IMG/VR virus record: IMGVR_UViG_3300020576_003495
Coordinates: 96,001-160,000 of that record
Direction: 5' to 3' (one strand)
DNA length: 64,000 nucleotides
From: a virus
Lineage: Duplodnaviria; Caudoviricetes
The translations under genes and the position numbers were made by a program. The notes under the pieces were generated by a model that was not told where the DNA came from, did not search any database, and saw only the letters and a list, made by a program, of their open reading frames with translations. This document shows, one piece after another, positions 659 through 41,854 of this stretch; within the stretch, counting starts at the first letter, position 1; every line of letters begins with the position of its first letter.

Positions 659-913
659 ATGACTGATATTTATAGCATTGAGGACACGCCAAAAACGTCT
701 GTCCTTGCTGATGGGACGGTGATTATTCGGGCTTACACCGATGACGCGCTGGAAAGCAAGCGGGTTGATGCGATCAATCGGATCGGAACACGCTGGCTGC
801 TTCATCCGAAGAACCAAGTGCAACGCGGTGGCGGGTTTTCCTTTCCAAAGGTTGACGGTTCATCTTTTTATTTGACACGCCACTTCGACAGGCTTAAACT
901 GCAAGCCGCGTGA
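659..913 (+). CDS. hypothetical protein
   Basis: ORF with TTGACA promoter and ACGGAG RBS upstream. Confidence 0.6.
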   Translation: MTDIYSIEDTPKTSVLADGTVIIRAYTDDALESKRVDAINRIGTRWLLHPKNQVQRGGGFSFPKVDGSSFYLTRHFDRLKLQAA

Positions 914-919
914 TCATTT

Positions 920-960
920 GGGCCGGTGGCGAAGTTGGTTGAAACGCATTAGGTGTGTTA
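920..960 (+). pseudogene. 5' half of a disrupted Leu-type tRNA
   Basis: GGGCCGG acceptor strand plus D arm GCGAAGTTGGTTGAAACGC; pairs with CCGGCCT-ACCA ending at 1593. Confidence 0.85.
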
Positions 961-964
961 ATAT

Positions 965-1040
965 GCCCCAATACGCAATTTGGTAAAGCGGGGGGATTTA
1001 AAATCCCTTGATTCTGTCAGTTCGACTCTGACTTGGGGCA
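965..1040 (+). tRNA. tRNA-Leu(TAA), short variable arm, no encoded CCA
   Basis: cloverleaf GCCCCAA/TTGGGGC, anticodon loop TTTAAAA. Confidence 0.9.
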
Positions 1041-1046
1041 CTCATT

Positions 1047-1550
1047 ATGATTCTTGTGTCTGAATACATAAAGCTTCCAAAAGAAGCTAGGCAAGCACAC
1101 CTAGATTTAGCTTCCCCTTGTATTGAGAGGGGTGGTAGTTCAACGCAGCATAGGGCAATACTGGCTTACGTGCTAGATACCGATATAGCTACGGGCGTAT
1201 GCTGTTGTCACGCTTGTAGTAACGGTAAATGCAGTAACCCTAAGCACCTGTATTGGGGTACGTATAAAGAGAACAGTCTTGATGCGTTAGCTGACGGTAA
1301 CCCTACACCGTGGGATCGCATGGTAAAGAAGTACGGTAAGGAAGGTGCCTTGGAGAAGCTTAAGTTACTACGCTTTAATAGTATAACAGCTAGGAGAGCG
1401 GCTTCTAAGCTTACGGATGACCAAGTGAGACACTTACGTTCTTTGCCAGTAAAGTACGGTATGGCGTCAGAGTGGGGTAGAATTTTTGGTGTTGGTAGGC
1501 ACGTAATACATAATGTTCTTGCCAACAAGTCGTATCAGCACGTACAGTAA
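1047..1550 (+). CDS. HNH/His-Cys-type homing endonuclease
   Basis: CHACSNGKCSNPKHLYWGT..EN motif, C-terminal helix-turn-helix-like tail. Confidence 0.85.
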   Translation: MILVSEYIKLPKEARQAHLDLASPCIERGGSSTQHRAILAYVLDTDIATGVCCCHACSNGKCSNPKHLYWGTYKENSLDALADGNPTPWDRMVKKYGKEGALEKLKLLRFNSITARRAASKLTDDQVRHLRSLPVKYGMASEWGRIFGVGRHVIHNVLANKSYQHVQ

Positions 1551-1593
1551 CACACTAGAAACACCGAGGGTTCGACTCCCTCCCGGCCTACCA
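1548..1593 (+). pseudogene. 3' half of the disrupted Leu-type tRNA
   Basis: T arm GAGGG-TTCGACT-CCCTC followed by CCGGCCT-A-CCA. Confidence 0.85.
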
Positions 1594-1597
1594 AACA

Positions 1598-1625
1598 GGG
1601 TGTATAGCTCAGGGGCAGTAGCAAC
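1598..1625 (+). pseudogene. 5' remnant of a tRNA (Ile/Lys-type start)
   Basis: GGGTGTA-TA-GCTCAGGGGCAGTAGC then abrupt loss of tRNA structure. Confidence 0.7.
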
Positions 1626-1632
1626 TTAGTAG

Positions 1633-1661
1633 TTGACGGCAAAAAGTATAGTCCGTATAAT
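1633..1661 (+). promoter_or_regulatory. sigma70 promoter of the HNH gene (leaderless geometry)
   Basis: TTGACG-17 nt-TATAAT, ATG 6 nt after the -10. Confidence 0.75.
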
Positions 1662-5686: not shown

Positions 5687-8600
5687 ATGTATTCTTCTCT
5701 GCTTGGTGGGACAGCTAAAACTATGTCCAACAAAACCCCCAAGACACCTTTTTCTGCGCTATTGAGCAAAGAGGAAAAGCATTTTCCCGCTGGATACACT
5801 GACCCCGAAGGGCATAAGGGGGGACAGTTTGCCCCGAAAGATACGACAGGTGAAGTAGCACAGGAAACCAAGGAAAAACCATTCGTTTATTCTGATGGTC
5901 AGACTTCCCTAGTGAATTCTATGGCAGTCAACAAGCCGAAGGAACCCACAGCGCCTGATGTCAGCCCTGAAGATTTGATTGCACACCACAAGGCAGGGCT
6001 TGAAAAGAGCGCCAAGCTGCTGAATCAGTACATCAAACAGGACGGGGGGAAGCCTACCGATACCAACGCAAAAATTCTAGCAGGGAACATTGCGAACCAC
6101 GTTGACGCGCTGTCTGATCTTGGTGGGATGAGCAAGGAAGAACTAGCCAAAGGACTCAGCACACAAGGTCTGAGCATGTGGCTGAAGAAAAAGCATGGCC
6201 TACCGCTCACAGCGCAAGAGGAAAAGAACATTGCCTCTACCATGAAGTCGGCTATCGCCTTGCAGAACAAGAAGCAAGCGGCTAAAAAACTGGAAGACCA
6301 CAAAAAGAATTCAGCGCTGGCGGAAGAAGCCAAAGTTAAGTTTGGGGAGGATTCGGCGCAGTACAAAAAGCTAAAAAACAAAGCCGAAAAAGACCTAAAC
6401 AAAGCCATGAGCTATGGGGTTCTTCCTGCCGATGCTGTAAAGGAAAAAGAAGTAGTTAAAGAAAACCACGATGCTGAGAAGGTAGCACAGCTTAAGGCCA
6501 TACATGACGCAGCAGAGGAATTGGCTCATCAAGAGCATATGGGCACGCAGAACACAGCCTACTACAATGCTGTTTCTGATGCCGTAGCTGCTGCGAAGTA
6601 TGCTGACGAAAACGAGACTAACAAGGCGATTGAAGCAGGGAAAGCTACCAATGCCGCAAAGATTGCCAACGGTAAAACCCTGCTATCTATTTCAGTAATT
6701 GCTCATGCTCAGGTTCAGCACCAACAGCATGAAGCCAAGGATTCCGACGCCTACAAAGAATACAAGGACGCGGCGAACGCCTATAAATACTACTACAACA
6801 CCGGGGCGATATATAACGGGCTAAACAAAGACGACCTAAAACAAGCGGTCAAGACGGGTAAGCTGGCATTCTCATCCATGAAGGCTAACAAGAACATGGA
6901 GAAGGTTGCCCCGCCTGATGTTCCCGGTTTTGAGAAACTTGCTCCCGCACCAAAACCCGCTGTGGAAGTGAAACCAGAATCACCAAAAACGTTCTCCGAC
7001 ATTTCTTCCGAGGCCAAGGCTAAAGACGGTTTGCAGCAGTTGGTTGATTTGACGACCAGCTACAACGCCCACATGACGATGCCTAACAATCAGACCTACT
7101 ACTCTGATTTCCTTGAAGCCAAGAAAAACTTCGACACGACGATGGGGGTTGGGTACTCCGACAAAGCGCTAGCGGCTTACTATGCCTTGAAGAACAATTT
7201 GGTGGATAGTCAGGCTAAGGATAAAGAAGCGGAAAAAGAAGCGCAGAAGAAAGATTTCTTTGGTGGTCTGGATTACCTGAAAGCTTACCCTAATGACAAA
7301 GAGGCGTCAGCAAAACTAGCTGATAACCACAAGGAGATTAACGATACCTACGGGGCAGGGACTACGCTGGCGTGGCTGAAAGAGTACAACGCCAAGAACA
7401 AGCAGGTTGAACCTAAAACCTTCTCCGATTTTGTTAATGACGCCAAAGGCAAAGGTAACACAGGTAAATTGGCCTACATGACCAATGCCTACAGCGACCA
7501 CAAAGCAGCACCGACACCCGACACACAGGCCATGCTTAATGGGGCTAAGGCTTCACTTGATGCGTCTATGGGGGCAGGGTATTCGGATAAGGCTATTGCT
7601 GCGTATGACACTGCGACCACTGCCAAGCCCCTCGCAACTTCGCCTGACGGTATGATGCTGGCGAAGGATAAGTCAGACTATTTCAAAGCCATAGATAGCA
7701 CGCCAGACAGCCCCAAGGGAGAGGCTGATCCTAAGTTGATGCAGATGAAATTGGACATCGACAAGAAGTATGGCGACGGCACAGCTAACTCGTGGATTGC
7801 CGAAAAGATTAAGGGGATGCATGCGGATGCCGCTGTAAAAGAAAATGTAAAAGCGTCTTACCTTAGCATTCTTAACTACGCGAACCCTGATGCCAGTCAG
7901 CAGAGTGCTATTGCAGAGATGAAGAAAAACATTGACGCGAAGTACGGGGATGGCACGGCTACAACGTGGATGACAGAAAACATCAAAGCTGTTGGTCAAG
8001 CCGCCACAGCGAAAAGTTACGATTATGGGAAGCAGGAATATAACCTAACCGACACTAAAGCCGACGCCCTAGCCGCGCTGAGAATTCCGCACACACTGGA
8101 TGACAAGTCTGACCTGATACAGAACATCATTGATAAGGCAAAAGCGGATATTGACCTTGCTTCGGGTGTTAAAGACGCAGGGCTGAAGTACCTTAATGGT
8201 AAGTACACCGACCACAGTAACGATAATCCGAACCCTGAGTTTTCTAATTTTGCTAAAGAGGTAGCGACCAAGATGTTGGTTGACGCGCAAGCAAAAGTAG
8301 ATAGCTTAGTTGATCCAATTCTTGAGCTATCAAAGAAAGACGCGGTTAAAGCACTTACTGGCCTGAAGCAAGACGTAGATAAGTACCTTGGGCAAGGTGC
8401 AAGTGCTGACTTGTTGGACTCCTATGACGAGGCTAAAGCAGACCACAAAAAACAATTCTTTGCCAAGATGGACGCGGTACAAGGTGGGAAAGCCAACGCA
8501 GACAACGCCTTGGCTTTGGGGATGCATATCAACAAAGTTGACGAGCTATTTGGCAAGGGAACATCAAGCCTGTGGGCTGATGAATTCAACTCTAAGAAGC

Positions 8601-28745: not shown

Positions 28746-28822
28746 GCCGGGTTGACGGAATTGGCATACGTGCAAGTTTCAAAAACTTGATCTTGCGGGT
28801 TCGACTCCCGCACCCGGCACCA
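28746..28822 (+). tRNA. tRNA-Leu(CAA), short variable arm
   Basis: CAAGT-TTCAAAA-ACTTG, CCA. Confidence 0.9.
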
Positions 28823-28828
28823 AGTTTT

Positions 28829-28905
28829 GCCCTTGTGGTGGAATAGGCATACACACGCGCTTGAGGGGTGCGGTTCTGTCGGTTCGAGTCCGACCAAGGG
28901 TACCA
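28829..28905 (+). tRNA. tRNA-Leu(GAG), short variable arm
   Basis: CGCGC-TTGAGGG-GTGCG, CCA. Confidence 0.9.
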
Positions 28906-37691: not shown

Positions 37692-37855
37692 GCAAGGGTA
37701 GTTCAGTCCGGTAGAACCATCGCTCTGGATATATTGAAACGGAAACAGCTAAGGAAAACAAGTAAGGCTGATACCTGCCACACTGCACCCGAAAAGTGCA
37801 ACACTGTGGCCTCAAGTGAGTGTAATCGCAGGTTCGAATCCTGCCCCTTGCACCT
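37692..37855 (+). ncRNA. tRNA-like RNA with a ~90-nt structured insert replacing the anticodon loop
   Basis: perfect acceptor GCAAGGG/CCCTTGC, canonical D and T arms. Confidence 0.8.
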
Positions 37856-38302
37856 AACGGATATTTATGAAACTGACTGACGAATTAAAAAACAAGATTG
37901 ACAGCATGAGCTACATTGACATGCTAGCCCAGTGGCGGTTTTACCCAATTGGCTACGAACTGTTTCAGGATGAATCGGGTGAGTATTTCTCAAACAGGCT
38001 GTTTGCTTTGCGGGATGCTTATCCAGATGCCGCTGTGGCCGCAAGCAAATCAATAGGGTGGGATCAATGAAAGCCGCTATCGTTATTGATTCATGGAAGT
38101 ACGAGATTTTTGATCGCAACCTTCGTCAGTTTGGTTATGCTTATGAAGAAGCCCCAAGCCTGACTAAGACTACACGGACGCTTCTGGTTAAGACCGACAA
38201 TCTTGAAGCCTTGGCTGAAGTCGTGAAGAAATCAAACATCGAAGCGGCTAAGACAAAAAAGGCTTGACAAATGTTTTAACCTGCTGTATCATACTTTTCT
38301 TT

Positions 38303-41765: not shown

Positions 41766-41833
41766 GCCCTTGCCAGTGGATAGGGCTTTGGTTTCCGATA
41801 CCGAAGCTGTAGGTTCGATTCCTACCAAGGGCG
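41766..41833 (+). tRNA. tRNA-Arg(CCG), minimal D arm, no encoded CCA
   Basis: TTGGT-TTCCGAT-ACCGA. Confidence 0.8.
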
Positions 41834-41854
41834 CGTAGTGTAACGGAGTGTGGA

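Follow-up and report, generated by a model that had tools for sequence, protein, structure and literature searches.

In cyanobacteria, the tRNA-Leu(UAA) gene is known for group I introns situated in its anticodon loop, some of which carry a homing endonuclease. Among the nucleases of this kind, I-PpoI acts as a homodimer on a pseudo-palindrome, where its cut produces TTAA overhangs. In phage T4, the translation of I-TevI, e (lysozyme) and soc is controlled by a late promoter in combination with a hairpin. To our knowledge, homing endonucleases have been thought to persist in essential genes solely by means of self-splicing introns or inteins. “Fractured genes” have been described in which a homing endonuclease lies between the halves of a split intein (PMC2677866), and the T4 nuclease SegB is reported to recognise a T-psi-C motif and to be inherited at nearly 100% (PMC2330249). 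SegB was the nearest described case that we found in the literature for the locus presented here, and no paper was found on nucleases carrying a replacement tRNA.

The locus lies in a 64,000-nt stretch (hereafter “the window”; positions 96,001 to 160,000 of the Caudoviricetes record IMGVR_UViG_3300020576_003495), whose own numbering is used throughout. The 178-kb IMG/VR phage record around the window contains 31 tRNA genes and a tmRNA. At 920-1593, a tRNA-Leu(UAA) (965-1040) and a nuclease gene (1047-1550) are both situated between the halves of another tRNA. We propose that this is probably a free-standing homing-endonuclease cassette inserted into the anticodon loop of the phage’s own tRNA-Leu(UAA) gene and provided with a replacement copy of it. 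This proposal goes beyond an earlier note made from the sequence of this DNA, where its main point was not considered.

Anatomy of the nested locus

The features of the locus are collected in Table 1. A tRNA-Leu and an HNH reading frame nested inside another tRNA, as the earlier note had it, are borne out by ARAGORN, Rfam and the intact reading frame; the paired acceptor, D arm, T arm and CCA that it had ascribed to the outer halves are likewise found on reading the sequence. The outer acceptor strands (920-926 and 1583-1589) form seven of seven pairs, including a G1-U72 wobble, and position 920 is the start of the sole heptamer fully complementary to 1583-1589 in the 4 kb scanned upstream. 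The D stem has 3 bp (929-931 with 945-947) and a loop containing GG, constituting a Leu-type D arm, and the T arm (1566-1582) has a canonical T loop and is followed by A73 and CCA at 1590-1593. The inner tRNA lacks an encoded CCA, unlike most tRNAs of this phage, the outer one included; its acceptor stem has a probability of about 1 in the computed fold.

Table 1. Features of the nested locus in window coordinates.
Feature	Coordinates	Strand	Evidence
Sigma-70-like promoter of the resident tRNA gene	872..900	+	10/12 consensus positions, 17-nt spacer
Outer (resident) tRNA-Leu, 5' half: acceptor strand, D arm, position 26, 5' strand of the anticodon stem (five bases)	920..953	+	Sequence reading; start coincides with that of the intact tRNA-Leu(UAA) of L066
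Left insert border: left arm of the helix extension (954-960) and 4-nt spacer	954..964	+	954-960 pairs with 1548-1554
Inner complete tRNA-Leu(UAA), 7-nt variable region, A73, no encoded CCA	965..1040	+	ARAGORN; Rfam tRNA 53.2 bits, E 4e-10
Six-base spacer between inner tRNA and nuclease ORF	1041..1046
Homing-endonuclease gene, 167 aa	1047..1550	+	Open ORF; Pfam, PHROG, I-PpoI motif
ORF-internal site pairing with 949-959, rival of the border helix (codons 16-19, family motif H-L-D)	1094..1104	+	11 contiguous pairs
Right arm of the helix extension, holding the nuclease stop codon (1548-1550)	1548..1554	+
Outer tRNA-Leu, 3' half: 3' strand of the anticodon stem (4 nt), 7-nt variable region, T arm, acceptor strand, A73, CCA	1555..1593	+	Sequence reading; T-arm scan; acceptor complement

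Bacterial tRNA-Leu normally has a long variable arm. Molecules with a leucine anticodon, a Leu-type D arm and a variable region of 5-7 nt (77-78 nt in all) are common in these phages, and are found in the window (965-1040, 28746-28822 and 28829-28905), in the related contig L066 (7198-7275) and in the loci L105, L130, L131, L133, L142 and L143. Two further tRNA-like stretches of the window receive no ARAGORN call: at 37692-37856, a 5' acceptor strand and D arm stand about 140 nt apart from a matching T arm and acceptor strand, and a 70-nt tRNA-shaped stretch (41766-41835) directly follows a tRNA-Val.

The outer tRNA and its unbroken counterpart in a relative

Positions 32-38 of the outer tRNA are replaced by the 600-nt insert, and the outer tRNA is called neither by ARAGORN nor by Rfam; at a lowered threshold, ARAGORN only builds a spurious Val(AAC) construct out of its 3' half. 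An insert located in the anticodon arm, as in the group I introns of cyanobacterial tRNA-Leu(UAA), and having borders that pair, could be read as a self-splicing or enzyme-spliced intron, whose removal would leave the outer tRNA still working. However, no group I or group II model was matched between 600 and 2600 by Rfam in permissive mode (E up to 1), and 965-1550 is wholly taken up by the tRNA and the ORF, with no free sequence for a ribozyme; a group I intron was ruled out on both counts. Neither does any join of the borders yield, on reading the sequence, a 7-nt loop with U33 and a leucine anticodon, and ARAGORN in intron mode (intron lengths of 0-700 nt) called the inner tRNA only, which disposes of the outer tRNA as an intron-containing call. 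An archaeal-type intron or split tRNA was also discarded, as the border helix has a single 1-nt bulge (none in its 9-bp register) in place of a bulge-helix-bulge. We therefore give the intron reading next to no credence. For want of a ribozyme, of space to house one and of a usable anticodon loop, the outer tRNA gene is dead as far as decoding is concerned.

The origin of the outer tRNA can be traced through L066, a metagenomic contig encoding a homologue of the 295-aa protein that flanks the locus in the window (85% identical). L066 shares the small upstream ORF, the promoter and nearly the same leader with the window, and the promoter is followed, at the same distance as in the window, by an unbroken 78-nt tRNA-Leu(UAA) with a short variable region, the same G1-U72 pair and 59.7 bits on Rfam. 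The start of this gene matches the start position of the 5' half in the window, and the nuclease ORF is absent from the 578-nt gap of L066 up to the next shared gene. Thus, L066 presents the same locus in a relative without the nuclease and with the target intact, as is characteristic of free-standing homing cassettes. Since the same promoter leads there into one unbroken tRNA-Leu(UAA), the outer tRNA is, as far as can be judged from the sequences, the resident tRNA-Leu of this lineage, broken between positions 31 and 39 and split by the cassette. The two tRNAs differ substantially in sequence, being about 65-78% identical (78% in the 3' part), so that they are taken as orthologues on the strength of position, type and promoter. 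No decay at all is seen in the outer halves, a state that fits either a recent insertion or a continuing selection on them.

Searches for additional relatives of the locus were made by several approaches. Exact IMG/VR scans with either half of the outer tRNA or with the anticodon arm of the inner one gave no match, a gapped acceptor-pattern search returned unrelated tRNAs only, and IMG/VR queries with the flanking proteins found no relatives. A metagenome scan with the 84-aa neighbour recovered 9 distant loci, all without tRNAs, and more distant relatives of the 295-aa neighbour had no comparable tRNA. The inner tRNA has no close relative among 78 distinct tRNA-Leu genes, the best being 76% identical.

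The region that follows the locus has its own history. Window positions 1598-1640 are the 5' remnant of a tRNA-Met(CAT), the unbroken form of which lies at 7542-7616 of L066. Next to the remnant come a promoter (1633-1661), an HNH-HTH ORF (1668-2210) and, in divergent orientation, a CAT tRNA (2220-2295); this tRNA is called by ARAGORN, yet has no Rfam match listed at E up to 1. As the remnant corresponds to the 5' part of the L066 tRNA-Met, this neighbouring gene has therefore been broken by a second nuclease cassette. Between its intact tRNA-Leu and tRNA-Met, L066 has 265 nt of non-coding sequence (7276-7541), where the window has 4 nt; this segment had no Rfam match, and may represent either an RNA of unknown type or what another element left behind as a scar.

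The nuclease

In its N-terminal part, the 167-aa product is a His-Me finger nuclease, whose His-Cys motif is like that of I-PpoI. It matches PHROG HNH families and, weakly, the Pfam family PF05551 (19.2 bits, below the 27-bit cut-off). By phmmer, residues 39-76 align with residues 79-118 of I-PpoI (E 0.02), conserved His, Cys and Asn included; the catalytic motif is aligned to I-PpoI H98 to N119, and the catalytic and zinc-binding motif that defines a His-Cys box is accordingly present in this alignment. The AlphaFold model has a pLDDT above 90 for residues 1-100, and I-PpoI is also its top Foldseek match, albeit a weak one (38-40 residues, E 0.5, TM 0.17). When 25 family members are aligned, 27 columns are invariant, and the nuclease of the window keeps every one of them (27/27). 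Judging from sequence and model, the nuclease is intact. Its last 60 residues form a helical DNA-binding-like domain in place of the basic tail usual in the family, and this C-terminus resembles (E 2e-7) that of a different HNH protein, which sits after a tRNA-Leu(UAA) in the locus L068. With His-Me/HNH matches and no intron model, the gene is an ORF of a homing-endonuclease family located outside any intron or intein, as free-standing homing endonucleases are.

A nuclease family around tRNA-Leu genes

Related nucleases were collected at 84 IMG/VR loci. In 62 of them, the start of a tRNA-Leu (mostly UAA) falls within a span reaching from 37 nt ahead of the nuclease stop to 150 nt past it; an orphan Leu-type 5' remnant is found up to 260 nt upstream of the start codon in 28 (at most of these about 65-95 nt away); and 9 of the 84 additionally have an orphan 3' remnant after the intact tRNA, with an acceptor strand fully complementary to that of the 5' remnant. 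These patterns make nesting inside a broken tRNA-Leu a habit of the family. The junctions fall at various positions of the resident tRNA, from 26 to 36. Loci of the family are usually arranged as 5' remnant, hairpin leader (containing a late-type promoter), nuclease, tRNA and 3' remnant. In the window, the tRNA comes ahead of the nuclease and occupies the place of the leader, of which all but the first bases are gone, and the 10 nt across the start codon are identical to those of L139 and L161. The window copy is a rearranged variant of the family design, with the basic tail swapped for a helical domain.

The family leader, conserved 50-60 nt upstream of the nuclease start in L088-L167 (e.g., L139, 1440-1503), has its T4-late-type promoter box within a hairpin loop, and the 5' pyrimidine arm of the hairpin covers the Shine-Dalgarno sequence. 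Pairing of this sequence occurs in 22 of 28 leaders; among shuffled controls the share is 44%. RNAalifold gave no consensus structure for 25 leaders, owing to indels, whereas folds of single sequences do show the hairpin.

Two of the loci, L127 and L128 (both 1422-2175), share an identical cassette, spacer and anticodon-stem halves, while their resident acceptor and T arms differ; going by these sequences, they appear to be a natural record of a co-conversion tract ending inside a tRNA. The same cassette in different backgrounds has hence been seen for the family, and the window’s variant is represented by five identical assemblies. In L005, the replacement tRNA is followed by a 31-nt mini-hairpin (752-782), built from an acceptor-like stem of 6 bp, a small stem-loop inside it and ACCA, which looks like a tRNA gene collapsed by internal deletion. 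Of the cultured phages that have this nuclease family, Citrobacter phage Ursula, Klebsiella phage vB_Kpn_AM_K6 and Ralstonia phage RsoM2USA have it annotated simply as an endonuclease or hypothetical protein, with no nested tRNA.

The border helix at the DNA level

The borders of the insert had been described as an 11-bp helix with one bulge standing where the anticodon stem should be, the ORF stop being part of its right arm. As a matter of sequence this helix exists: 949-952 are complementary to 1555-1558, G953 is bulged, and 954-960 are complementary to 1548-1554; in an alternative register, 952-960 and 1548-1556 form 9 contiguous pairs. The four pairs of 949-952/1555-1558 are the leftover of the resident anticodon stem, and are expected. 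For the seven further pairs (954-960/1548-1554), chance was estimated with random genomic 15-mers set beside the fixed stem remnant. Seven additional Watson-Crick pairs appeared in 3e-4 of the random trials, and an equal or better duplex energy in 0.016. The left strand pairs promiscuously because it is all G and T, and when wobble pairs are counted, at least 7 extra pairs are formed by 2.9% of random neighbours.

Part of these figures would be compatible with a plain coincidence, in which four pairs of the resident stem are prolonged where a G/T-rich left border meets an A/C-rich right border: a duplex-energy chance of 0.016 is not negligible for a feature picked by eye, the wobble-tolerant frequency is higher still, and the same strand finds a better partner in a conserved coding motif inside the ORF, so it pairs easily. 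Nonetheless, all seven extra pairs are of the Watson-Crick type (the 3e-4 case) and begin directly beyond the stem remnant, separated from it by a single bulged G, and we regard coincidence as rather unlikely.

The left arm has a recognisable source. It starts precisely where the resident anticodon stem stops, and the six bases with which it opens are identical to the conserved left end of the L139 family cassette; a close variant of these six bases is found at the corresponding junction in L005, L127, L128 and L159. Since its first bases are the left terminus of the family cassette, placed at the junction, the left arm belongs to the mobile element. No source was traced for the right arm, and the two arms bear only a weak, if suggestive, resemblance to the hairpin of the family leader (P 0.025 and 0.035, the latter for the right arm against the 3' arm of the hairpin). 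The alternative offered in the earlier note, namely that the inverted repeat marks the ends of the element, thus receives partial support, from the exact junction and shared terminus of the left arm, and is left without a traced counterpart on the right. The seven extra pairs are most likely a DNA-level legacy of the cassette ends, and not a working RNA element.

A more specific DNA-level reading takes the two arms as half-sites of a 12-bp palindrome with a central TTAA, recognised by a dimeric I-PpoI-like enzyme, with the cassette inserted at its centre; it adds that every tRNA-Leu(UAA) gene has an anticodon arm that comes close to a palindrome with TTAA at its centre. The arms do end in TTAA (left) and TAA (right), I-PpoI is the best match to the nuclease core by sequence as well as by fold, and the joined palindrome is absent from the 178-kb genome, although a mere 0.01 copies or so would be expected there. 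On the contrary side, joining the arms would make the anticodon arm 4 nt too long, and hence this palindrome was never part of a working tRNA; furthermore, the I-PpoI matches span 38-40 residues at E 0.02 (sequence) and 0.5 (fold), the nuclease has its DNA-binding-like domain set apart at the C-terminus, as is typical of monomeric modular homing endonucleases, and the junctions of the family vary along positions 26 to 36. A split palindromic target is accordingly very doubtful in our opinion.

Folding of the transcript

From the border helix, the earlier note had suggested that the outer tRNA may still fold and be processed by RNase P, acting as a scaffold around the inner tRNA and the nuclease mRNA. 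Folding of 907-1600 gives this suggestion no support: the probability of the border helix is about 0 in the partition function, and it is absent from the minimum-energy fold. Its 5' strand prefers the ORF-internal site, with 949-959 and 1094-1104 forming 11 contiguous pairs of -15.7 kcal/mol (chance P of about 0.006-0.011), whose probabilities are mostly 0.9-1, with 0.41 and 0.79 for the two terminal pairs. Blocking the rival site alone (1090-1108) does not bring the border helix back; only when the whole ORF is barred from pairing does the outer cloverleaf with the border helix emerge, at a probability of about 0.68. The acceptor stem, with a probability of about 0.9 in every fold tried, is the only robustly predicted part of the outer tRNA. 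The rival helix encloses the inner tRNA and the start codon and dominates each fold in which 1094-1104 may pair; it is not conserved in L004 or L005.

Comparison between loci was also considered. The locus is identical in five assemblies (L073 to L076 equal the window over 600-2400), and consequently there is no covariation to count. Regarding other nested family loci that keep a T arm, L127 and L128 have border pairing of 0.09 and 0.06 against shuffles, stemming from their retained anticodon stems, and L131, L134, L142 and L161 have none.

In its full form, the scaffold reading states that a tRNA-shaped clamp is restored in the transcript by the outer halves together with the border helix; its ends at 920 and 1593 would be defined by RNase P and 3' processing enzymes, and this would stabilise or regulate the inner tRNA precursor and the nuclease mRNA. 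Several observations are consistent with it: the halves retain all tRNA landmarks, the acceptor stem forms in all the folds tried, the T stem and helix reach about 0.68 (the D stem about 0.4) when the ORF is unavailable, and the helix extension is improbable by chance. Against it, the helix is missing in the free transcript, even with the rival site blocked; processing of the inner tRNA would leave its arms on different molecules; none of the six other nested T-arm loci has significant border pairing; and identical assemblies provide no sequence variants in which covariation could appear. We judge the scaffold quite unlikely. A bolder version is that the split halves are kept on purpose, the helix closing the transcript of about 674 nt into a tRNA-shaped handle (acceptor and T minihelix, A73 and CCA) that would be cut at 920 and 1593 by RNase P and 3' trimming enzymes, giving the nuclease mRNA a protective and perhaps leucine-chargeable tRNA-like end, with the rival pairing to codons 16-19 as a translation-dependent switch; this is speculative, and we consider its chances slim. 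An RNA role of the border helix is, overall, possible but unsupported.

Proposed mechanism and significance

For the homing cassette with a replacement tRNA that we favour, the following course can be envisaged. The nuclease would cut the cassette-free tRNA-Leu genes of co-infecting relatives near the anticodon arm, and repair would copy the cassette into the cut gene. The imported tRNA, which would not itself be a target, may keep the phage supplied with tRNA-Leu(UAA). The whole nested unit would be transcribed from the resident tRNA promoter. The sole Shine-Dalgarno-like run ahead of the nuclease start (GGGG; 1030-1046) lies in the 3' acceptor strand of the inner tRNA, and for this reason the translation of the nuclease is probably kept low.

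The window locus and dozens of related loci point to another route of entry into essential genes for homing endonucleases, by which a tRNA gene is broken and the damage is paid for with a spare copy. One nuclease family appears to be devoted to tRNA-Leu genes, and the tRNA arrays of phages can be seen as a playground for gene-drive-like elements. Break-and-replace would also explain tRNA fragments in such arrays, which are missed by gene finders. With its exchangeable DNA-binding tails and its conserved regulatory leader, the family is a tractable system for studying how a target is chosen within RNA genes and how a cassette is rebuilt by recombination. An RNA scaffold would be more surprising if true, and is so far unsupported.

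Comparison with known systems

The group I introns of bacterial tRNA anticodon loops resemble the locus in the kind of host gene, the insertion in the anticodon arm and the presence of a mobile nuclease; here, in contrast, there is no ribozyme and no splicing, and function would be kept by a spare gene and not by RNA repair. The split tRNA genes of Nanoarchaeum share with it a gene in two pieces with complementary sequence by the break, and the “fractured genes” a homing endonuclease between two gene pieces (PMC2677866). In both of these systems, the pieces are rejoined by trans-splicing of RNA or protein, whereas no rejoining machinery or signal was found here.

I-PpoI (PDB 1a73, 1cz0) is similar in the motif around the general-base histidine and the metal-binding asparagine, and in being the top Foldseek match. 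The likeness covers about 40 residues only; outside them the fold is different, as is the C-terminal domain and, in all probability, the oligomeric state, and the host is a nuclear rDNA intron for I-PpoI and a phage for the nuclease of the window. The control of T4 I-TevI, e and soc has its parallel in the usual leader of the family, with a promoter box in the loop of a hairpin that covers the Shine-Dalgarno sequence; the window copy has lost this leader apart from its first bases.

The closest parallel is T4 SegB and the free-standing Seg/Mob nucleases of “intronless homing”, where a nuclease gene likewise sits in a phage tRNA cluster and is absent from the homologous place in relatives, the nuclease has sequence within a tRNA gene as its target, and tRNA markers in the flanks are inherited together with it (PMC2330249). 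The gene of SegB, which is of the GIY-YIG type, lies between intact tRNA genes, whereas the nuclease of the window is of the His-Me/HNH type and lies inside a broken one; moreover, unlike SegB, the cassette of the window travels with a full replacement tRNA bearing the same anticodon.
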